64,000 bases of DNA, from the NCBI GenBank assembly GCA_965225945.1, contig CBDDBZ010000024.1:32001-96000 (forward strand), read 5' to 3'. Below the pieces are notes generated by a model. The model had not been told where the DNA came from, made no database searches, and worked only from the letters and a program-made list of their open reading frames with translations. The position numbers were made by a program, and so were the translations under genes. This document shows positions 8,518 to 40,864 of this stretch, one piece after another (position 1 is the stretch's first letter; each line of letters opens with the position of its first letter). This DNA comes from Alphaproteobacteria bacterium. GTDB taxonomy: Bacteria > Pseudomonadota > Alphaproteobacteria > GCA-2731375.

Positions 8518-8617
8518 TAGCCGGATCGCCTCCTCAATGCGCCTGCGCCGGCCCTTGCCTGCAGTCCAAGGAGACACACTACATATAGTGGGTGTGGGTG
8601 ATAACCGGATAGGCAAG
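8518..8617 (+). mobile_element. Right-end fragment (100 bp, with TIR) of the 755-bp element
   Basis: Identical to 24441-24540. Confidence 0.92.
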
Positions 8618-23159: not shown

Positions 23160-23785
23160 TCAACTTCCTGGCACAACACCCGCTGGCAACGCAGTGACAT
23201 GTCGTGCGATCGCACGGGGATGAGCGAACCAGATAAGATCGCGCTGCGAATGATGGGCAATGTGCGCGAGCGCGTCGCGGACCAGCTTTAGCCGGAATGG
23301 CTGCCCGACCGTCATGGGGTGCATCGCAACCGCGCAGACGAGAGGCCGCTCGGTGCATTGTTCGATCATTTCATCGAACTGGTCGACGATCATATCAGCG
23401 AATTCACGTGCGCCCTGATGCCGAAACAGAATTGCGATTGAGTCGTTGACCTCCAACGGATATGGGACAGACAGGATCCGACCGCTACGCGTCTTCATCC
23501 AGAACGGTTGATCGTCGGCGCACCAATCCATGATGTACTCGTAGCCGGCCTCCTGAAGGAGATCGATGGTAACGTCACTATTGGACATCCCGGGGCCCAT
23601 CCATCCGCGTGGAGGGTTGCCCTCATGACGTTCGATGGTCTCCGTGACGGAGGCGATCATTCGCGCCTCGTCCTCGGCCCACATCGAGCCTTGATGCTCA
23701 GACTGGGTGCGACCATGACCGATCACTTCATCGCCGCGCGCGCGAACACGTTCCATGATCTCGGGACACTACTCGTAGATCAGAC
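23160..23785 (-). pseudogene. Second deacetylase paralog, 3' part (5' part at 29170-29451)
   Basis: Joins the 5' part across TSD GATCAGAC as ...NASSLIYE*CPEIMERV; also carries an in-frame TAG near 23769. Confidence 0.88.
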
Positions 23786-24060
23786 CTTGCCTATCCGGTT
23801 ATCACCCACACCCACTATATGTAGTGTGCACCCATTTTCCTGAGTAAAGCTCGGTGCAGGTCGAAGCGGAGATATCTCCGGCGATGCCGAGCAGGGACTC
23901 GGACGGCATTGTAGCGCCTTTTAGGCGACACTTTAGCGTGGTGGAAATCCTAATCATTGAGTCGGATTTGGCAAAACGCCACGTTGCATAAAGGACCGTC
24001 ACTTCATTGAAATTTATCTGAAATCGGAGGTGAACGACACCGATGGAATATTCCAGGAAA

Positions 24061-24369
24061 TCAGAGCTTCATTGAATTGTAGGATTCGAGTGCCGGATTA
24101 TTCACAAATAGCTCTGTGAACTGGTTTTCAAGTTCGCTCAATACGTCATATGAAGTAAACGGATTGAGGATCACGTTCTTGCGTGTCGCTTCGTCTTCGC
24201 TGCGACTCAAAACGCGCAGGAGACTAACAGGCGCGGACGGGTTCTTCGCAACGATTCGTGCCAGCGCGTCGCTTTCTTCGACTAGTGCCGTCAATCGCTC
24301 AGACGATGTCGTTTCATCAGCAGCTTCCCGTCTGGCCGTGGGTTTCTTCGTTTTTCCCTTGGTCGCCAC
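24061..24369 (-). CDS. Passenger: short leucine-rich-repeat-variant (LRV/HEAT-like) protein, 102 aa
   Basis: VAKNPSAPVSLLRVLS...TRKNVILNPFTS repeat pattern; GTG start; identical in three copies. Confidence 0.7.
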   Translation of the reverse strand: MATKGKTKKPTARREAADETTSSERLTALVEESDALARIVAKNPSAPVSLLRVLSRSEDEATRKNVILNPFTSYDVLSELENQFTELFVNNPALESYNSMKL

Positions 24370-24403
24370 CGTTCCGTCCCCCGATGTTAAGTACGTGACG
24401 TGA

Positions 24404-24432
24404 ATTAAACTCCGGTTCGGTTTTCAGAACAA
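24404..24432 (-). promoter_or_regulatory. Putative sigma70 promoter of the passenger gene
   Basis: TTGTTC-N17-TTTAAT on the minus strand, ~35 bp upstream of the GTG start. Confidence 0.5.
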
Positions 24433-24541
24433 TCAAGAATTAGCCGGATCGCCTCCTCAATGCGCCTGCGCCGGCCCTTGCCTGCAGTCCAAGGAGACAC
24501 ACTACATATAGTGGGTGTGGGTGATAACCGGATAGGCAAGC

Positions 24542-25364
24542 GTGAACCATCAAGCCGACGCCACGACGCCGACCGCGGGCGGCGCCAAGGTCCGCTACAT
24601 CAACGCGGAATGGCGGAACCGGGAGGACAGCCCGCGCATCGGCTCACGCGAGAGCCGGCGCGCCATGACCTCGTTCCAGGACGTGCTGGTGCACGACGTC
24701 AGGGCCGAATTCCAGGCGGGCCAGATCGATCTCGACCGCTCGGGCTTCACGCTGTGCGAGAACCTCACCGAATGCGGCGACTTCCGCGACGACGCGGTGA
24801 TCGAGGCGCAATACTATCCCGAGATGATCGACCTCGTCCGGCGGATGAGCGGCGCCGACCACGTCTTCGTCAGAGCGCACCTCGTACGCACCGAAATACC
24901 CACCGATTTCAACGACGGCTACGCGCGCTTCGTCCACTGCGACTTACAACATCCGGCTGATCGAGGAATTGGCGCATGAATTGCTGGCGCGATACGACGT
25001 CGAGGCGAAGCCGAACTGGACTTACGCCTGGTACAACACCTGGCAGCCCTTCGATCATCAGGTGCAGAAAAATCCGCTCGCCGTGATCGACTGGCAAAGC
25101 CTGCCCCTCGAGGACGTGATCGACTACTATTATACTGGCCGCGGCCTCGACAGCCTGACCGCGGCGCCCGTCTACAGCCCCGACCATCGGTTCGATCCCG
25201 GGGATGGAGACGACCGAGACACTGGTGATCAAGCAGTCGACGCGCGGCCCGGCCGGGCGGCGTATTGCCCGCACACTTCCTTCGATCTGCCCGGCAGCGA
25301 CGACTTGTTGCCCCGGCGCAGCATCGAAACTCGGTTCCTCGCCGTCTTCGAGGACGCCGCTTAA
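24542..25364 (+). pseudogene. CmcJ/NvfI-like oxidoreductase, frameshifted (cargo)
   Basis: LDRSGFTL, YYPE, VHCD / NTWQP, PLAVID, PHTSF, RRSIETR split over two frames near 24950. Confidence 0.75.
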
Positions 25365-26912
25365 AACACCAGCTCCACCAGGTAGGGACCTTCGGAGCGG
25401 AGGCCGGCGTCGAAGGCGCGCCGCAGGCCGTCCAGATCGTCGGCCCGGCTCGCCTCCACCCCCATGCCTCGGGCCATTTGGACCCAATCCAGGTCCGGCC
25501 GGTCGAGGCTCAGCATGTCGATCGCGCGGGGGCCGGGATTGCGGACACCGACGTTGGTGAGCTCGCCGCGCAGGATGTCGTAGCTGCGGTTGGCGAAGAT
25601 CAGCACGGTGATGTCGAGGTTCTCGCGCGCCATGGTCCAGAGCGACTGCGGCGTGTACATGGCGCTGCCGTCGCCGATGAAGGCCAGCACCTTACGATCG
25701 GGACAGGCGATCTGGGCGCCGATCGCCACCGGCATGCCGTAGCCGATCGCGCCGCCCCGGTTGTTGAACCAGTCGTGCGGCGGCGCGCCGGCGGTGAAGG
25801 GGAAGAAGCCCCGGCCGGAGGTCACCGATTCGTCGACCACGATGGCGCCTTCCGGCAGCAGGGAACCGATCACCTGGGCGATACCGTCGAGCGTGACGGC
25901 GCCGCTGGGCGCCTCCGGCCGGCCCGCCGGCGCGACCTGGGCCGGCGGCCTCGTGTGGGCGTCGAGCTCGCCGGCCAACGCCTCCAAGGCAGCGACGATG
26001 TCGCGCTCCACGCCGGCGAGCTCCACCACCTCGCAAGCCTCGGGCGTCAGCGCGCTGGGCTTGCCGGGATAGGCGAAGAAGGCCACGGGCGCGCGGGCGC
26101 CGACCAGCACCAGTCGCTCGACCTCGCAGAGAACCGCCAAGGCGCGCTCGACGACATAGGGAATGCGCGCCACCTGGACCCGGCCCGCGCCCCGGGCGAG
26201 CCGAGTGTTCGAGCCCTCGCTCAACAGGCCGCAGCCGGTCGCCGCCGCGATTCGTCCCGCTAGCTCCAGCCCCCTTTCGCCGAGCGCCTGGCCACCGAGG
26301 AGGAGCGTCGCCTTGCCGCCGCTGGCGCGGAGCGCCTCGGCCGAGGCGCGCACGGCGTCCTCCGAGACCGCCTGGCGCGGCGCCGGCTCGCGCGCCGTCA
26401 CCACATTCGCGGCCTCGTTCCAAGCGCTATCGGCGGGCAGGATCAGGGTCGCGATCCGGCCGGGAGCCTGGCGCGCCGCCTCGATTGCCAGGGCCCCGTC
26501 GGCGGCGATGGTGGTCGCGTCGGGCGAGGTCTTCACCCAATGGGACATCGGCCGGGCCACGCCTTCGACGTCGGAGGTCAGCGGCGCATTATGCTGGATG
26601 TGGTGGACGGCGTGGGTCGCCGACGATGTTGACGATGCCCGAATTCGCCTTCTTGGCGTTATGGAGGTTGGCCAGCCCGTTGGCGAGGCCGGGTCCCAGG
26701 TGCAGCAGGGTCGAGGCCGGCCGCTCGCGCATCCGGTAGTAGCCGTCGGCGGCGCCGGTGACCACGCCCTCGAAGAGGCCCAGGACGCAGCGCATTCCCG
26801 GCACATGGTCGAGGGCGGCGACGAAATGCATCTCCGAGGTGCCCGGATTGGCGAAGCAGATGTCGATGCCGCCGGCGAGCAGCGTGCGGACCAGGCTTTC
26901 GGCGCCGTTCAT
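25361..26912 (-). pseudogene. Acetolactate synthase large-subunit-like ThDP enzyme, frameshifted near 26610 (cargo)
   Basis: [25 protein letters not shown] and GDGSAMYT motifs over two frames. Confidence 0.88.
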
Positions 26913-27031
26913 GTCGCCCCCTCCCGTCTCGAGCAAGGCCGCCCGGCGAGGAGCGGCGAATCGCGTCCGGCATAACCGGCGGGGCGAGAAATGCCAAGCG
27001 ACAAGGGACCGATTTCGACTACCCTGCCCGC

Positions 27032-28321
27032 ATGCACAGGCTGCTCTTTCTCGATCCGGGCCACTTTCACGCCGCGCTCACGCTTCGCGCGGCCAATCCC
27101 CGGGTCGCAGACGAGATCCATCTCCATGCGCCCGAGGGGCCGGAGAGCCAGGCCTTCGTCGATCTGGTGGAAGGCTTCAACGCCCGGGCCGACGCGCCGA
27201 CGGCGTGGCGCTTGGAATGCCATCTCGGTGCGAATTCGCTTCACCGGTTGATCGAGGAGCGCCGCGGCGAGATCGTGATCCTGGCCGGACGCAACGATCG
27301 CAAACTCGCCACCATCCGCCGTCTGCGGGAGGCCGGATTCCACGTCCTGGCCGACAAGCCCTGGCTTACCGGGGCGGGGGCGCTGGGGGATCTCGCCGCC
27401 GCGACCACGCCCGGCCGGCCGCTGGCGATGGACATCATGACCAGCCGGCACATGGCGCTGGCGCGCCTGCGCCGCGCGCTCGTCGGGCAATCGGAGCTGT
27501 TCGGCGCCTTCGAGGCCGGGGGGCCCGGGCCGGCGATCGAGCAGACCTCCCGCCATCACATCCACAAGCTGGTGAACGGCCAGCCGCTCCGCCGGCCGGA
27601 CTGGTATTTCGATTGCCGGGTCCAGGGCGACGGGCTGGTCGACATCCAATCGCACCTGGTCGATCAGGCGCAGTGGTTGATCGCGACGCTGCACGGCCCG
27701 GAGGCCGAACGCGACATCGAGGTGATCCGGGCCCGGCGGTGGCCGACGCCGGTCGGCCGCGAGCTCTACGCCGAGAGCACGGGCGTCGAGGACTATCCGG
27801 AGCTGCCGGCCGGCGTGGTGGTGGACGATGTCATCCAGCTCGCCTGTAACGGCGTGATCGAATTTTCGATCGGCGGCGTGAGGGTGCGCCAGCGGGCCGA
27901 ATGGGGCGCCCGCGAAGCGGAAGGCGGCGGCGACCAGCAGCACGCGGTGGCGCGCGGCAGCGGTGCGCAACTCGTCCTGCGCCAGGGGCCGGAGACCAAC
28001 CACGCGGCGGAGCTGCATGTGGCATCGAGCGGGGCCCGAGATTTGGAATCCCGCCTGGCCGCCGCGGTCGCGGCGCTGGCCGCCGACTTTCCCGGCCTTT
28101 CGATGGCGCCCTCGGAGCTCGGCTTCCGGCTCACCGTCGCGCCCGGGCTCGACGGCGGCCACGAGAGCCACTTTCCCCTGGTGCTCGACGAATTCTTGGA
28201 TCTCTTGGACGGATCGGGCGACGGCGCGGCGCTGGCGGCGCGGATCGGTGCGCGCTACGCCCTCCTCGCCCGGGCTCGAGAAATTGCCGAGGATATCCCC
28301 CCGCCGCCCGACGCGCCCTAG
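27032..28321 (+). CDS. Gfo/Idh/MocA-like putative oxidoreductase (cargo)
   Basis: [24 protein letters not shown] and HLVD motifs. Confidence 0.75.
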
Positions 28322-28414
28322 AGCCCCGTGAAGCAGTCCTTCGCGTCGCTCAGGTCTTCTTGCGCCTGTAGCGGAGCCGGCGTTTCTTCCGCTTGCCTTT
28401 CCGGATCTTGGACG

Positions 28415-29169
28415 CTTGCCTATCCGGTTATCACCCACACCCACTATATGTAGTGTGCACCCATTTTCCTGAGTAAAGCTCGGTGCAGGTCGAAGCGGAG
28501 ATATCTCCGGCGATGCCGAGCAGGGACTCGGACGGCATTGTAGCGCCTTTTAGGCGACACTTTAGCGTGGTGGAAATCCTAATCATTGAGTCGGATTTGG
28601 CAAAACGCCACGTTGCATAAAGGACCGTCACTTCATTGAAATTTATCTGAAATCGGAGGTGAACGACACCGATGGAATATTCCAGGAAATCAGAGCTTCA
28701 TTGAATTGTAGGATTCGAGTGCCGGATTATTCACAAATAGCTCTGTGAACTGGTTTTCAAGTTCGCTCAATACGTCATATGAAGTAAACGGATTGAGGAT
28801 CACGTTCTTGCGTGTCGCTTCGTCTTCGCTGCGACTCAAAACGCGCAGGAGACTAACAGGCGCGGACGGGTTCTTCGCAACGATTCGTGCCAGCGCGTCG
28901 CTTTCTTCGACTAGTGCCGTCAATCGCTCAGACGATGTCGTTTCATCAGCAGCTTCCCGTCTGGCCGTGGGTTTCTTCGTTTTTCCCTTGGTCGCCACCG
29001 TTCCGTCCCCCGATGTTAAGTACGTGACGTGAATTAAACTCCGGTTCGGTTTTCAGAACAATCAAGAATTAGCCGGATCGCCTCCTCAATGCGCCTGCGC
29101 CGGCCCTTGCCTGCAGTCCAAGGAGACACACTACATATAGTGGGTGTGGGTGATAACCGGATAGGCAAG
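28415..29169. mobile_element. 755-bp TIR element, copy 2 (passenger ORF 28690-28998, minus strand)
   Basis: No differences from copy 1 seen; same orientation. Confidence 0.95.
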
Positions 29170-29451
29170 GATCAGACTACTCGCGTTCTGCGCCGCAGGA
29201 ATTTGGAACTCGTCGAGCACGTCCAATAAACGCCAAATTCCGACCCGAAGGCCATAGTCACGCCAGGCATGATTGCGCTGGGTTTGCGGCGCATCGGTCT
29301 TGAACGCGGGGTCGGAGCCCAAGCCAGTGCCGAATGCGAACGTCTCGATGTTATTGCCGACGTAGAATGCCAGTCTCTTACCGTCGGGCCAATCATAGAT
29401 TGGCCTTTCGTCGATCATCGACAGATCGTAGCGACCGTGAGTCGGTAGCAT
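29170..29451 (-). pseudogene. Second deacetylase paralog, 5' part
   Basis: MLPTHGRYDLS...WPDGKRLAFY...WRDYGLRVG. Confidence 0.88.
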
Positions 29452-29516: not shown

Positions 29517-29926
29517 TGCAGAAGCCGATCCGCGCAGGCTGGGTACTCTGCGTGCCGTCCATGCGGCCGGCGATGGCGATTTCCGAAGGCTGACTGACGG
29601 ATTTCTCACCATCGAGGCACACCTCTCCCGTCGTTTTCCTCCCTGCGATGGCTGCGTAGATCAAGCCGGCACCGGCGGCGTACGCAGCCGGACCATGCGC
29701 GCCAGGATCAGTCCAAAGATCCGTCCCGACACCAAGGTCTCGGCCATCCAGTGCGGGAGAAATGGGTCAACATTCTCCTGTTAGCACCTGCTAATATTAC
29801 GGAGAGTCTTGGGGGAACACCAGACGTCGATTCGGCGATTCCCGACATTCGACCGCCAAGCTCGTCTATTGGGGGTATGGTCCCCGTCGGGTCGGAGTGG
29901 CCGATTCGGTGATTCATAACCAATGC

Positions 29927-31149
29927 CACAGTACACGACTCGTTCATGCTGGCTTTGGCCTGGGCACCTGGACTGGTGGTTTTCCGGGGACGAGGAAACG
30001 AATCAGCTCAATGGCTTGACGCCTGTCGATAGGATTGACGAGCTGTCGCCTTATCCACTCGAAACCGTATCGGAAGATGGATTTTGCCATCCTTTTGTGG
30101 GTTTTGAGGCGGATCGGCTCGGCCTCGTGGAGCCAATCGCCGACTTTGTGCGCCCAGCAGAAGGTGATGGAAAGGACGGCGGTGAGCTTGGAGATGCGCT
30201 CCGGGTCGGTCATGTGGGTGTCTTCGAGGTTGAAGCCACGGGTTTTCAAGGCGGCGAAGAGGGTCTCGATTTGCCAGCGCTGGGCGTAGATGGCCAAGGC
30301 CTCCTCGGGCGCGTCGTTGGTCACGACGATCAACAGTTCGCCGGTCTTGAGATGGAGCGCGGCGACGAAGACGGGCCTGGCCTTGGGTTTTCTGGCCTCC
30401 GAGAGGCGCCTGGCGTTGGAGAGGATGCGGCTTTCCCCGGGTTTGAGGTCGCGAAACAGCTCCCTCGCCTTGACCATGCGACCACGCGTGTTGGCGATCT
30501 TGATGTTGGATCGGATGCGGATGTGAAAGGGGATGGCCTTTTCCTGCAACCATGCCAGCCAGGCGTCGCCGATGAATTCCCGGTCGGCCAGGAGGCTGGC
30601 GATCTTGTCGACCCCGAAGAGCCGGAGGACGTGTTCGAGGATCGCGATCCGCTCCTTGGTATTGGAATTGCCCGCCTTGTCGAGCACCCGCCAGCACACG
30701 GGAATGGCGATGGCGCGGTTGACGATGCCGATCATCAAGATGTTGACGTCGCGGCGACCCAGCCGCCAGTTGGTCCGGTCCATGGTCAGCCGCCACGGCC
30801 CCGCCTGGAGCCCCATCATCGCGACCAGGAACTCGGCGAGGCGATCGTAATCGAAATCGACTTGCTCGAAAAACCGTTGCAGGCGCCGATAGTTGGAGCT
30901 GGATCGCGCGCGCCCCGGAAAGTGGCAGGCCAAGTGAGAGAGGTTCACCGTCCGGGCGACGAACACGCCGAAGACCAAGACGCAAAGGCTCTCCAGACGG
31001 CTCTTGCGAAAGGCGAAGCCGCATCGTAGCGTCTCACGCAGGGCGTTGATCGGGTTGTCTCGCATGATTTCCCTCTTGACTCGTCGTGGAGTGAATCGGG
31101 AATCCTACAACCTTTTCAACGTCCTACGTAAATGCCGTCGTGTACCATG
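29927..31149 (-). mobile_element. IS4-family IS (IS10/ISAba1-like), 1223 bp
   Basis: IRs cacagtacacgac / catggtacacgac; 9-bp TSD aaccaatgc at 29918-29926 and 31150-31158. Confidence 0.9.
29944..31065 (-). CDS. IS4-family transposase
   Basis: MDRTNW, LADREFIG and YREK-type YAQRWQIETLFAALK motifs. Confidence 0.93.
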   Translation of the reverse strand: MRDNPINALRETLRCGFAFRKSRLESLCVLVFGVFVARTVNLSHLACHFPGRARSSSNYRRLQRFFEQVDFDYDRLAEFLVAMMGLQAGPWRLTMDRTNWRLGRRDVNILMIGIVNRAIAIPVCWRVLDKAGNSNTKERIAILEHVLRLFGVDKIASLLADREFIGDAWLAWLQEKAIPFHIRIRSNIKIANTRGRMVKARELFRDLKPGESRILSNARRLSEARKPKARPVFVAALHLKTGELLIVVTNDAPEEALAIYAQRWQIETLFAALKTRGFNLEDTHMTDPERISKLTAVLSITFCWAHKVGDWLHEAEPIRLKTHKRMAKSIFRYGFEWIRRQLVNPIDRRQAIELIRFLVPGKPPVQVPRPKPA

Positions 31150-35877: not shown

Positions 35878-37565
35878 ATGCAAGAGCCCAAGCAAACTCT
35901 GGCGCACGTCATCGCCGATCAGATGGCCAAGTACGGGGGGTTCATCCTCGTCGGCCTGTTCCTGCTTCCGGTCATCATCGTGCCCATCTGGGTCGGCGAC
36001 CTCGCGCGGTTGCTGGAGATCCTCGAGGAATTCCTGCCGATCCTGATGTTGATGTCCCTCGCGATCCTGCTCTTCACGGGCTATCCGGTGGCCTTCATTC
36101 TGGGCGGGTTGGCGATTTGCTACGGCTTCGTGGGATGGTTCTTCGGAATTTTCGAGATCCAAGAGTTCTTCAATTTCGTGCCGCGCATCTGGATCGGCGC
36201 CGCCGAGAACCTGGTGCTCGTCGCGGTGCCCGCCTTCATCGTCATGGGCATCATGATGGAGCGGAGCGGCGTTGCCCACCGCATGCTTTATTCCTGCCAG
36301 GTCTTGCTGCGCCGGGTGCCGGGCGCGCTCTGCCTCTCCGTCACCGTGATGGGCACGATCCTCGCGGCGATGACCGGAATCATCGGCGCGTCGGTGACGA
36401 TGATGAATTAAACTCCGGTTCGGTTTTCAGAACAATCAAGAATTAGAGCGGCGTTGCCCACCGCATGCTTTATTCCTGCCAGGTCTTGCTGCGCCGGGTG
36501 CCGGGCGCGCTCTGCCTCTCCGTCACCGTGATGGGCACGATCCTCGCGGCGATGACCGGAATCATCGGCGCGTCGGTGACGATGATGACCGCCATGGCGC
36601 TGCCGACGATGCTCAAGCAGGGCTACGATCAGGGCCTGGCGACGGGCTCGATCTGCGCCTCCGGTTGTCTCGGCATCCTGATCCCGCCCTCGATCATGCT
36701 GATCATCATGGCGGATCTGCTCTCGATCTCGGTCGGCAGCCTGTTCATGGCGGCGCTCGGCCCGGGACTGATACTCGCCTCGCTGTATCTGATCTACATC
36801 TTCTTGATCTCCACATTTCGGCCCTCGGTCGCGCCGCCGCTACCCTCGGAGATGCTGAACTTGCCGCGCAAGGAAATGCCCCCGTTGATCCTGAAGGGCT
36901 TCCTTCCGCCGGTCTTCCTGATCGCGCTCATCAAATGCTCGATCCTGTTCGGCTGGGCCACCCCCAGCGAGGCGGGCGCGGTGGGCGCCTTCGGGGCGTT
37001 CGTTCTCGCTGCCTTCTACGGGACGTTGAAATGGCCGATGCTCAGGTCCGTTTGCCACACCTCGGCGAACACGATCGCGATGGTCTTCTTCATCATCATC
37101 ACCGCGACCTGCTTCGCCTACGTCTTCCGCTCGCTCGGCGGCGACGATGTGGTCGATGGTTTGATCCGCGAGGCGGGCCTCGACACCTGGGGCCTGCTGT
37201 TCCTGATCATGGGCATCGTCTTCGTGCTGGGCTTCTTCCTCGATTGGCTGGAGATCACGCTCATCATCCTGCCGATCTTCGCCCCGATGGTGGCGACCTT
37301 CGACTTCGGCGATCACGTGGCGAAGATGGACACGCTCTACTGGTTCACGGTGCTGCTGGCGATCAATTTGCAGACCTCGTTCCTGACCCCGCCGTTCGGC
37401 TATGCCCTGTTTTACCTGAAGGGGATCGCGCCGCCGGAGGTCACGCTTCTCAGCATCTATCGCGGGATCATTCCGTTCGTCATCCTGCAGCTCATCGGGC
37501 TGGGGATCGTGCTGAGGTTTCCGGAGATTGCCTTGTGGCTGCCTAGAGCGGTCTATGGCGGCTGA
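35878..37565 (+). pseudogene. dctM: TRAP large permease disrupted by a 143-bp duplication plus a 39-bp foreign insert
   Basis: 36264-36406 is repeated at 36446-36588; the insert brings a TAA at 36409-36411; LGILIPPS and SFLTPPFG lie downstream. Confidence 0.88.
36404..36446. mobile_element. 43-bp internal fragment of the 755-bp element
   Basis: Identical to 24401-24443. Confidence 0.9.
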
Positions 37566-38281: not shown

Positions 38282-38991
38282 CGCGCTTCAGGTGTGAAGC
38301 GCATCGCCGGGCCGCCCCAAGCCAGCCCGGGGCCGCATTCTCACCGATTCCTGAATGTGGGAAAGTACACGTGACGCGAAGCGAAGGACGTCTTCACGGG
38401 GGACGAAATCGGGTAGGCGGGTTCCTCGCGGTTCCCGCCTCCCACACCACCGGGCATACGTTCTACGTACCACGGCGGTTTCCGGTTAGTTGCAACGCTC
38501 GGAACCTGTCGGCTAGGGGGATGAGCCCCTGGCCGTCGAACCAAGCCAGGGTCATGGCCTCGGTGGCTTGGGGGCTGAGGGACTTGCGCCACCAGCCCTT
38601 GCCGGAGAGAGCCAAGATCCATGCCCGCCATTCGGGCACCCCAAGGCTTCGCAGAAAATCCGCTTGCGCCTTGGTGCGCTTGCATTGCTTGAGCCGGACA
38701 CAGCGCAGTTTTCGGCGGATCCATCCGTCGAGACGCCGTAGTTGTCTCCCGCAACGGGCATGGCGGAAATACGTCACCCAACCGGCGAGGAAGCTGTTCA
38801 GCTCGCCGACCATGCGCGCGAGGCTGACGCCCCGGTTGCGCCGGGTGATTTCGCGAACCCGTTGCTTCGCCCGCCGCAGGCTTTGGGGCGCAATGCCGAG
38901 CGATCCATCCGGCAAAAGTCGGTGGCCGAGGAACCTGCGTTCCCAGACCGGAGCGACGGCACTTTTCTCCTGGTTGATCTGAAGATGCAAC

Positions 38992-39746
38992 CTTGCCTAT
39001 CCGGTTATCACCCACACCCACTATATGTAGTGTGCACCCATTTTACTGAGTAAAGCTCGGTGCAGGTCGAAGCGGAGATATCTCCGGCGATGCCGAGCAG
39101 GGACTCGGACGGCATTGTAGCGCCTTTTAGGCGACACTTTAGCGTGGTGGAAATCCTAATCATTGAGTCGGATTTGGCAAAACGCCACGTTGCATAAAGG
39201 ACCGTCACTTCATTGAAATTTATCTGAAATCGGAGGTGAACGACACCGATGGAATATTCCAGGAAATCAGAGCTTCATTGAATTGTAGGATTCGAGTGCC
39301 GGATTATTCACAAATAGCTCTGTGAACTGGTTTTCAAGTTCGCTCAATACGTCATATGAAGTAAACGGATTGAGGATCACGTTCTTGCGTGTCGCTTCGT
39401 CTTCGCTGCGACTCAAAACGCGCAGGAGACTAACAGGCGCGGACGGGTTCTTCGCAACGATTCGTGCCAGCGCGTCGCTTTCTTCGACTAGTGCCGTCAA
39501 TCGCTCAGACGATGTCGTTTCATCAGCAGCTTCCCGTCTGGCCGTGGGTTTCTTCGTTTTTCCCTTGGTCGCCACCGTTCCGTCCCCCGATGTTAAGTAC
39601 GTGACGTGAATTAAACTCCGGTTCGGTTTTCAGAACAATCAAGAATTAGCCGGATCGCCTCCTCAATGCGCCTGCGCCGGCCCTTGCCTGCAGTCCAAGG
39701 AGACACACTACATATAGTGGGTGTGGGTGATAACCGGATAGGCAAG
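38992..39746. mobile_element. 755-bp TIR element, copy 3 (passenger ORF 39267-39575, minus strand)
   Basis: One substitution seen versus copies 1 and 2; 8-bp TSD GATGCAAC at 38984-38991 and 39747-39754. Confidence 0.95.
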
Positions 39747-40864
39747 GATGCAACCTGCCTTGGAGGAATTTGGCCACCGAGGCCATCACCCGTTCGCCTG
39801 CCGCCTGGCTGCGAACATAGATGTTCACATCGTCGGCGTAACGGCAGAAGCGATGGCCCCGCGCCTCCAGCATCTGGTCCAGGTCGTCCAGTAGAAGATT
39901 GGCCAGCAGCGGCGACAGCGGGCCGCCTTGCGGCGTACCCTCATGGCGCCGGATGCAGACGCCGGCTTGCATCATCCCCGCTTGCAGGAAACGCCGGATG
40001 ATGCGCAGCAGGCGCTTGTCGCCAATGCGCCCAGCCAGTCGGGACATCAGAATGTCGTGCTTGACCCGGTCGAAGAACGTCTCCAAATCCAGGTCGACCA
40101 CGATCCCGTGGCCTTCGGCGACGTATTTGCCTGCTTGGGCCAGAGCATCGTGGGCGCTCCGTCCCGGACGGAAGCCAAAACTCGAACCCGAGAAAGCCGG
40201 ATCGAGAATTGGCTGAAGGACTTGCAGGATGGCTTGCTGAACCAGACGGTCCAGCACCGTCGGGATGCCCAATTGCCGCATCCCGCCCCCCGGCTTGGGA
40301 ATCGAGACCCCCTTCACCGGTTGTGGCCGATAACCGCCTCGGGCCCACTGCGCCACCAGCGCATCCTTGTGATCGGCGAGCCAGGGCCGTAGGTCTAGGA
40401 TGGTCATCCCATCCACCCCCGCCGACCCCTTATTCGCCTTCACCCGCCTGTAGGCTTGGCTCATGTCGGTGGCGATGAAAAACCGCGCTTAGATGGTGAT
40501 TTCAGCGACATCGGGCATCGTGGCGCTGTAGCTGCGTGGTTTGCAGGCGGGAGTTGGCTCGGCGCAGCGGTGGGTAAGTAGCCCGCCGCGGCGACCGCCA
40601 AGAGTCTGGCGGCGGCGGGCTGCTTATCCACCGCGGGCGGGCGTCTCGATTCCTGTTTTGGCTGGCTGGCGGCGGCGGTTCCGCGGACCTGACAAGGGGA
40701 GCCGCGGGAGTACACTCGGGCCGCTGAGAACGATGCGGCGCCGGCCCCGTTTGCTTGCTGGCAACGACCGGCACCGCACCCCCCGAGCCATGCAAGGCAC
40801 GACCCATATGCGCAGTATCGTGCGGGTTTGGGCGTGGGTCCACCCCGTTCTCATCGGCTGCGCG

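Follow-up and report, generated by a model that had tools for sequence, protein, structure and literature searches.

The stretch analyzed here is a 64,000-nucleotide segment (hereafter, the window) of contig C24 in the metagenome-assembled genome of an alphaproteobacterium (GCA_965225945.1), and the subject of the analysis is a short mobile element that is present in the window in three direct copies, each exactly 755 bp long. The 43-nucleotide arms at the two ends of each copy are 100% complementary to each other, copies 1 and 2 are identical in sequence, and copy 3 is one base off (position 54, C>A). The GC content of the element is 0.51 compared with 0.65 for the window. Along the direction of the gene that it carries, the element is composed of a 43-bp end, ~128 bp of upstream sequence, a gene for a 102-amino-acid protein of the LRV_2 family, the decayed 3' end of a transposase gene and the second 43-bp end (Table 1). 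The element is overlapped by 12 open reading frames (ORFs) of at least 25 amino acids, with no transposase ORF among them, and only one of the three element ORFs that were compared with Pfam matches any family (LRV_2). An Rfam scan of the element region detected nothing inside the element and two weak matches outside it, far under the gathering scores. The initial annotation of this DNA, made from the sequence alone, had described three transposase-less 755-bp copies with perfect 43-bp terminal inverted repeats, a single difference and a lowered GC content, and all these observations hold.

Table 1. The 755-bp element and associated features, in window coordinates. The resident IS is the insertion sequence (IS) of the IS1595 family that is found elsewhere in the same genome; fractions are identical bases over the first 16, 32 and 43 positions; IRL and IRR, left and right ends of the IS.
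Feature	Position	Strand	Remarks
Putative compound transposon: GATCAGAC, copy 1, 3,874-bp cargo (24541-28414), copy 2, GATCAGAC	23778..29177	.	
Copy 1	23786..24540	(-)	strand is that of its gene; 755 bp, identical to copy 2
Terminal inverted repeat, counterpart of the IS right end (IRR)	23786..23828	.	100% complementary to 24498-24540; compared with IRR of the resident IS 16/16, 26/32, 35/43
Relic of an IS1595-family transposase gene (its 3' end), with IRR	23786..23893	(-)	78.7% identical to positions 998-1105 of the resident IS
102-amino-acid LRV_2 gene, GTG start, purine-rich stretch upstream	24061..24369	(-)	Pfam match, homologues
Terminal inverted repeat, end upstream of the LRV gene	24498..24540	.	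compared with IRL of the resident IS 15/16, 30/32, 35/43
Copy 2	28415..29169	(-)	LRV gene at 28690-28998(-)
Copy 3	38992..39746	(-)	LRV gene at 39267-39575(-); interrupts the gene for the reverse transcriptase of a group II intron
Target-site duplication of copy 3, GATGCAAC (GATCCAAC-type)	38984..38991 + 39747-39754	.	
Solo right-end fragment of the element (positions 656-755, 100 bp, without the left part)	8518..8617	(+)	
Internal fragment of the element, 43 nucleotides (positions 616-658, adjoining the LRV gene on its upstream side)	36404..36446	(+)	between the 143-bp duplicates in a DctM permease gene

The genome is a 6.27-Mb metagenome assembly that consists of 39 contigs, with an estimated completeness of 96.55% and contamination of 5.58%. 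A blastn search of this genome with the element produced 313 alignments, and 69 of these are at least 700 bp long, a number far in excess of chance expectation; these 69 copies together account for 0.83% of the genome. Exactly 755 bp is the length of 48 of the 69 copies, 22 of which are identical to copy 1, another 18 differ from it by one, mostly private, base, and among the other 8, there are 2 differences in one copy, 3 in each of two copies and between 5 and 40 in the remaining five. This star-like pattern of differences shows that the element went through a very recent burst of transposition. The 102-amino-acid ORF is intact in 59 of the 69 genomic copies, disrupted in 8 and devoid of the start motif in 2.

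Perfect 8-bp direct repeats flank 47 of the 69 copies, and the consensus of these 47 clean sites, W-N-[G-W-W-N-N-W-W-C]-N-W, where the brackets enclose the duplicated bases, is palindromic and AT-rich within a GC-rich genome. In this set, G occupies position 1 of the duplication in 31 sites, A occupies position 6 in 33 and C occupies position 8 in 35, and A or T is found two bases outside the duplication in 44 of the 47 sites on one side and in 40 of the 47 on the other side. The target proposed in the initial annotation, GATNNNAC, is a fair first approximation of this motif. The clean 8-bp duplications that the initial annotation attributed to the copies are borne out for copy 3 (GATGCAAC), but not for copies 1 and 2, where GATCAGAC flanks the pair.

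The insertion of copy 3 could be compared with other samples. Public sequencing runs were searched with the part of the window between 35800 and 40300, and contigs of four runs from four studies, the best-matching of which may be the source sample of the window itself, were aligned on that stretch. Contigs of the runs X1, X2 and X10, which come from three studies and one of which carries the label sponge metagenome, join position 38983 to position 39747 and thus skip exactly 763 bases, that is, 755 bases of the element plus 8. The site of copy 3 is empty in these other samples and, therefore, the insertion is polymorphic. At this site, copy 3 splits the gene for a group II intron reverse transcriptase/maturase (38463-40464), with the RVT_1 domain (6.2e-35) encoded in the right half and the maturase domain GIIM (2e-18) in the left half, so that one mobile element is nested within another.

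Copies 1 and 2 are arranged differently. They lie in direct orientation, enclose the cargo and have one duplication in common: GATCAGAC precedes copy 1 (23778-23785) and follows copy 2 (29170-29177) and is confined to these outer borders of the pair. The inner flanks of the two copies, CGTGAACC and CTTGGACG, are unrelated, neither copy has a duplication of its own, and these octamers are the first and the last 8 bases of the cargo, as two separate insertions in a donor would leave them. The cargo ORFs include TPP_enzyme_C and Oxidoreduct_C domains, and the entire cargo is 99.6% identical to the region C34:100947-105008 of the same assembly, where no element is present at either border and the homology ends exactly at the element ends. 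The simplest reading of these observations is the joint transposition of copies 1 and 2 as a compound transposon, such that, in a sister lineage, two copies of the element would have come to flank 3.9 kb of host DNA before the resulting 5,384-bp unit moved to 23778-29177. Even so small an element apparently can give rise to compound transposons and, by this route, duplicate ordinary host genes.

That the repeats are an artefact of assembly or binning is scarcely credible. The genome is assembled from a metagenome, with the contamination given above, and there is a 0.4% difference between the 3.9-kb cargo in the window and its counterpart on C34, but the perfect duplications at distinct sites in 47 of the 69 copies, the presence of the element, as well as of the exact empty site, in independent runs, and the related copies in other genomes and metagenomes all argue against such an artefact.

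The blastn search with the element also found longer elements in this genome the first 108 bases of which are 78.7% identical to the left end of the 755-bp element. These elements, which have lengths of 1,105, 1,631, 1,658 and 1,121 bp and share the same first 16 bases, are copies of a single resident IS. Its basic form is 1,105 bp long (C26:2024-3128, C32:60944-62048 and C35:51448-52552), and in addition there are one 1,118-bp copy (C34:125574-126691), six copies of 1,631 or 1,658 bp, one of which is cut by a contig end, and two 1,121-bp copies that are internal deletions. The IS encodes a 339-amino-acid protein that contains an N-terminal zinc ribbon (PF12760, E 3.5e-13) and an IS1595-type DDE domain (PF12762, E 3.6e-37), matches NCBIfam NF033547 (E 7.6e-57) and is 81.7% identical to proteins of Acidiphilium plasmids that are annotated as 'IS1595-like element ISAcr1 family transposase'. 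The copy of ISAcr1 that was examined is 1,080 bp long between ends that read CTTGCCTATCCGGTTG, with a single mismatch in 16 bases compared with the 755-bp element. The statement of the initial annotation that the ends can be assigned to no IS family is, accordingly, to be revised: they match those of a catalogued IS of the IS1595 family (15/16). The observation that the ends match no IS in the window is correct; the partner IS has no copy there, which is why its transposase had been missed.

The ends of the 755-bp element resemble each of the two ends of the resident IS (Table 1) at least as closely as the latter two resemble each other (15/16, 26/32 and 31/43 over the first 16, 32 and 43 bases), and by this comparison of identities, they should serve the transposase as a substrate just as well as the two ends of the IS itself. 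The 8-bp duplications found at copies of the partner IS resemble those of the 755-bp element in type, and 8 bp is the value that is characteristic of the IS1595 family in ISfinder. On contig C26, the order is GTTCGATC, the 755-bp element, GTTCGATC, the IS and GTTCGATC, that is, both elements are inserted in the very same 8-bp target. Taken together, the IS1595-type ends, the 8-bp duplication and the presence in the genome of a transposase with both the zinc ribbon and the DDE domain make it highly probable that the 755-bp element is a mobile insertion cassette (MIC) of the IS1595 family that is moved in trans by the resident ISAcr1-like IS. The transposase would recognize the shared terminal 15-16 bases along with the conserved CACCCACACCCACTA block, insert the element at W-N-[G-W-W-N-N-W-W-C]-N-W and duplicate the bracketed 8 bp. 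A cassette moved in trans by a transposase encoded outside the window had already been proposed in the initial annotation, and this proposal gains support from the absence of a transposase gene, the duplications at 47 of the 69 copies, the empty site and the IS1595-family partner.

The genomic surroundings of the two elements include several further arrangements. At C26:1261-3136 and C32:60181-62048, the 755-bp element is located exactly 8 bp from a complete 1,105-bp IS, each with its own ends, and in contigs from other runs, element ends are also found 8 bp apart, with spacers that fit the target motif; this arrangement of neighbors suggests re-use of a duplicated target, or else local hopping. 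The long form of the IS (C14:57696-59326, and also on C1, C15, C27, C33 and C38) consists of the 1,105-bp IS and an inverted 505-bp copy of its own right end, with the extra right end sitting ~21 bp outside the left end, which results in 505-bp perfect inverted repeats; these units still have 7-8-bp duplications at their outer ends. The flanks of the C1 and C15 copies are identical, and these two might represent a single locus that entered the assembly twice. The window itself contains another IS of ~1,224 bp (29926-31149) that encodes a DDE_Tnp_1 transposase (PF01609, 1.4e-16) and is represented by 47 copies that measure 1,150 bp or more in the genome, which is thus heavily loaded with IS.

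The origin of the cassette can be gleaned from its left end. The 108 bases at this end show homology to the final 108 bases of the IS, a stretch that encompasses the C-terminus of the transposase and the right end, and the 66-amino-acid ORF at 23802-24002(-) is a decayed transposase C-terminus (...SLLGIAGD.S....ELYSG.W). The LRV gene occupies the place of most of the former transposase gene.

Several observations weigh against the assignment of the mobility of the cassette to the resident IS. The trans-mobilization by the resident transposase is deduced from the ends, the target motif and the shared target on C26. The transposase relic is only 78.7%, and the full 43-bp ends 35/43, identical to the resident IS, and given that the relic is only ~79% identical, the cassette descends from a different, related IS, so that cross-recognition by the resident transposase has to be assumed. 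No perfect duplication is present at 22 of the 69 copies, and exchanged flanks explain only some of these cases (4 flank matches). The run data are contigs, from which filled junctions in other runs cannot be confirmed. Because the region on C34 lacks flanking elements, the source of the cargo copy must be either a different strain or an intermediate that has been lost, unless the assembly mixes strains. The two kinds of elements do not always co-occur: in five other genomes with LRV elements, all of them incomplete metagenome-assembled genomes (MAGs), a transposase at least 80% identical to the resident one is encoded in two, a weaker match to the IS1595 family is found in two, and no IS1595-family transposase is detectable in one. 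Finally, the initial annotation had credited the ORF with a promoter of its own, but a consensus scan reveals no sigma-70-like site upstream of the LRV gene; by eye, a weak TTGTTC-17-TTTAAT can be discerned at 24432-24404(-), ~35 bases upstream of the GTG start.

The divergence of the relic and of the 43-bp ends from the resident IS would also fit a mover of another kind, namely, a closer master IS with identical 43-bp ends that is unassembled, lost, or harbored by another member of the community. The genome is 96.55% complete, which leaves some room for such an IS, and a relative, genome G017, has IS-type ends that are 84% identical to bases 3-107 of the element, that is, closer than the resident IS. 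Nevertheless, no second IS with these ends was found in the genome, and a scan of metagenome contigs for the exact 43-nucleotide end yielded 9 loci (95-100% identical over the aligned part), all of which are copies or fragments of the 755-bp type, none with a full transposase. Given also that the resident IS has the same target motif and duplication length, and that both elements share one target on C26, we consider a master IS of this kind improbable. With the resident ISAcr1-like IS as its likely driver, the locus presents a clean, datable, transposase-less IS derivative in mid-burst, with a target motif derived from 47 sites.

Relatives of the cassette are broadly represented in genomes and metagenomes. 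Among 251 candidates from metagenome protein clusters, 234 are homologues of the LRV protein at E<=0.001, and most of these are exactly 102 amino acids long, 74-99% identical and encoded on contigs of 0.5-1 kb that come from several sources (ncbi, ena, jgi and tara). Such short contigs are expected of a repeat that breaks short-read assemblies, and the 102-amino-acid LRV_2 proteins, which are encoded on hundreds of short contigs from metagenomes, can be taken henceforth to mark the element family. In a set that includes one genome per species, 17 loci encode a relative of the LRV protein; both IS1595-type ends surround the gene in 10 of these loci, one end is present in 2 and none in 5, the last being all cyanobacterial or unclassified, with 43-56% identity. 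For 8 of the 10 two-ended loci, the distance between the ends is 523-546 bp, and these loci are found in alphaproteobacterial MAGs, including one of Stellaceae, one MAG of Dehalococcoidia and one MAG labeled 'Proteobacteria'. Therefore, the common form of the family is an element of the size of a miniature inverted-repeat transposable element (MITE) that consists of little more than the gene, whereas the 755-bp form retains the transposase relic. Perfect 8-bp duplications flank two of the seven short relatives that were aligned. A Rhodospirillales MAG also carries the 755-bp form, with 87-92% identity.

Among 41 genomes, namely, the genome analyzed here and 40 relatives, 8, this genome included, contain a match to the element. 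In a genome of the same genus, the element is matched along its full length with 89% identity and, over bases 1-344, with 100%; pieces that are 99-100% identical are located at contig ends in a genome from the same family; and a complete genome of another family in the same class (G029, loci L032/L050) is 99% identical over bases 1-370. These near-identical pieces in relatives point to a recent horizontal spread of the element. A transposase cluster with 99% identity to the resident transposase was detected as well. On the whole, the sequence comparisons point to recent horizontal transfer of both the element and the IS.

The ORF that the initial annotation singled out as the only convincing one, with an LRV/HEAT-like product, matches LRV_2 (PF25591) with E 2.6e-8 and 34.1 bits, above the cut-off of 27; with the older LRV model (PF01816), it scores 19.4 bits, under the cut-off of 21.6. 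Evolution of this ORF was traced by estimating the ratio of nonsynonymous to synonymous substitution rates (dN/dS) for the window element and seven short relatives (L039-L045 of the 10 two-ended loci). Over the resulting 28 pairs, which are not independent and include one sequence with an in-frame stop (L045) and one without the first codons (L042), dN/dS ranges from 0.16 to 0.57 and is <=0.36 in 27 of the 28, and there are 59, 32 and 76 variable columns at codon positions 1, 2 and 3, respectively. Within the lineage of the 755-bp element, in a comparison with metagenome copies at 95% identity, 1 of 86 bases changed in the two 43-bp ends together, 11 of 309 in the LRV ORF, 6 of 128 in the upstream region, 11 of 174 in the transposase relic and 6 of 58 in the spacer, such that the density of changes is lower in the ORF than in the relic or the spacer. 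The match to LRV_2 and the signature of selection bear out the earlier choice of this ORF, which is a real gene subject to purifying selection across the element family. With regard to its expression, contigs from the RNA library X13 cover the element at 39005-39404 and 39488-39733, but with ~70 copies and possible DNA carry-over, transcription is not inferable from this coverage. The predicted RNA fold downstream of the LRV gene is not notable (z -1.81).

When a profile of 30 homologues was compared with 1.84 billion representative sequences, 4,750 proteins were retrieved at E<=0.001. Among the best 150 of these, 12 are small (82-165 amino acids) and 138 are proteins of 412-2,244 amino acids in which this module (~90 amino acids) occurs 5 to 20 times. 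All 12 large proteins that were scanned carry LRV together with LRV_2, and one of these also contains a WGR domain and one a NACHT domain. The cassette gene thus encodes a single unit of a helical-repeat, protein-binding scaffold, and the function of the LRV protein can be predicted in outline as that of a small binding module. The structural check proposed along with the initial annotation gave a partial answer: the AlphaFold model, built from a 30-row alignment, is all-helical and of moderate confidence (mean predicted local distance difference test score, pLDDT, of 65), with residues 1-19 disordered, but no fold could be assigned. A Foldseek comparison of this model with PDB yielded nothing at E<=0.001, the best Z in a wide VIA-align structure search was 3.1, and the best E in a sequence profile search of PDB was 0.75. 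PADLOC, PHROGs and NCBIfam gave no match for the LRV protein, and the protein atlas returned only LRV-type clusters, including phage-labeled ones, with no function attached. Predictions of a complex between the transposase and the LRV protein scored 0.24 and 0.14, under the mark of 0.32, which speaks neither for nor against binding.

As to the role of this protein, our preferred guess is a module that binds other proteins to the advantage of the element itself and not of any one host. Because elements from different hosts retain the gene, and because it stands where the transposase was, we lean slightly toward a role in the element's own propagation or control, an ordinary cargo being about equally likely. 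In the former case, which is advanced here tentatively, the LRV protein would be part of the life cycle of the element, as a small adaptor or regulator with the transposase, the ends or a host factor for its binding partner, and selection on the gene would act through transposition success. The location of the gene where the transposase gene was, the fact that it fills most of the 523-546-bp sister elements, the purifying selection in elements of alphaproteobacterial MAGs and one Dehalococcoidia MAG, and the basic, disordered N-terminus that is followed by helices are all compatible with such a role, but the protein shows no similarity to the transposase (hhalign probability 0.2), matches no DNA-binding family, and a single broken gene would be complemented by the 69 near-identical copies, so that selection within a genome should be weak.

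An equally tentative explanation is that the gene is a host-directed cargo, a protein-binding module that is useful to the bacterium, for example, in a host-associated life. Known mobile insertion cassettes carry genes useful to the host, large bacterial proteins are built from repeats of the ~90-amino-acid module (138 of the best 150 hits), and all 12 of the large proteins scanned combine LRV and LRV_2, in one case with WGR and in one with NACHT. For a host function, however, one copy would suffice, and the family is found in contigs from several sources. Less likely is the idea that the LRV elements are a widespread family of 'satellite' transposons in which the protein is needed to exploit or restrain an ISAcr1-like transposase; if true, the cassette would parasitize another parasite and encode the very factor by which the latter is hijacked or controlled. 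A decoy role against the giant LRV proteins, some with NACHT or WGR heads, is a further, weaker possibility. A small protein that evolves under purifying selection on a non-autonomous element across distant hosts suggests that some 'MITEs' are not passive.

Small pieces of the element are also found outside complete copies. In the window, at 36264-36588, a perfect tandem duplication of 143 bp (36264-36406 and 36446-36588) splits the gene for a DctM-type TRAP permease, and the 43-nucleotide piece of the element (positions 616-658) is located between the two duplicates, with overlaps of 3 and 1 nucleotides at the junctions; contigs of the runs X1 and X2 carry this permease gene without the 182 extra bases. 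This event looks like a templated insertion or template-switch repair and not like transposition. Elsewhere in the genome, an isolated 27-nucleotide internal fragment (C21:68066-68092) is flanked by direct duplications of 21 and 18 nucleotides of host sequence, and a 50-nucleotide internal fragment (C22:47480-47529) is associated with a ~35-nucleotide flanking duplication within a repetitive stretch. Four other isolated fragments that were examined have no flanking duplication, and one more, on C9, shows only a 20-nucleotide inverted repeat between its flanks.

Among known systems, the closest are ISAcr1 and the IS1595 family in general. The terminal CTTGCCTATCCGGTT of the cassette and ISAcr1 is identical over 15 bases, both make 8-bp duplications, and the transposase of the resident partner (81.7% identity) contains both domains of the family. 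The difference is that the 755-bp element has no transposase and instead carries an unrelated gene, along with a decayed 3' relic of ~108 bp. In this family, as well as in the IS66 family, IS with passenger genes have been described (10.1101/2021.05.26.445724). The transporter IS (tIS), as presented there, belong to the same family and also have a passenger gene within the IS ends but keep the transposase, which the 755-bp element lacks; in none of the 17 genomic loci and 9 metagenome loci examined are a transposase and an LRV gene located within one pair of ends. A literature search found no description of an LRV-carrying IS1595 derivative, although this search did not extend to supplements and ISfinder, where the element may have a name.

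MITEs and MICs are established non-autonomous derivatives of IS that can be activated by a cognate transposase (PMC3129680). With MITEs, the 755-bp element shares the short length, the terminal inverted repeats, the target duplications, the high copy number and the dependence on a transposase supplied in trans. MITEs are, however, normally non-coding, whereas here there is an intact ORF under purifying selection; with regard to size, 755 bp is at the upper end of the MITE range, and the relatives span 523-546 bp. The MIC category provides the better fit, with IS ends around a passenger gene unrelated to transposition (LRV_2), no transposase beyond the relic, and the expected mobilization by a cognate IS in the same genome. 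MIC231 of Bacillus cereus is a mobile insertion cassette of the IS4/IS231 type, and the cassette described here differs from it in belonging to the IS1595 family. In known MICs, the passenger is a recognizable enzyme or resistance gene, as opposed to the tiny conserved gene found here in 69 copies, a number at the MITE level.

Compound transposons built from MITE or MIC copies offer one more parallel, and the Aeromonas qnrS2 cassette is reportedly a case of this kind. Here, too, two direct copies enclose a cargo of 3,874 bp, with one outer 8-bp duplication, the differences being that the enclosed DNA is of an ordinary metabolic kind (genes for a TPP enzyme and an oxidoreductase) and is duplicated from another place in the same assembly. 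The verdict of these comparisons is that the element is a mobile insertion cassette of the IS1595 family, that is, a member of an established category. What is unusual is that a MITE-like copy number goes together with a gene under selection, and that the family is so broadly represented in metagenomes.

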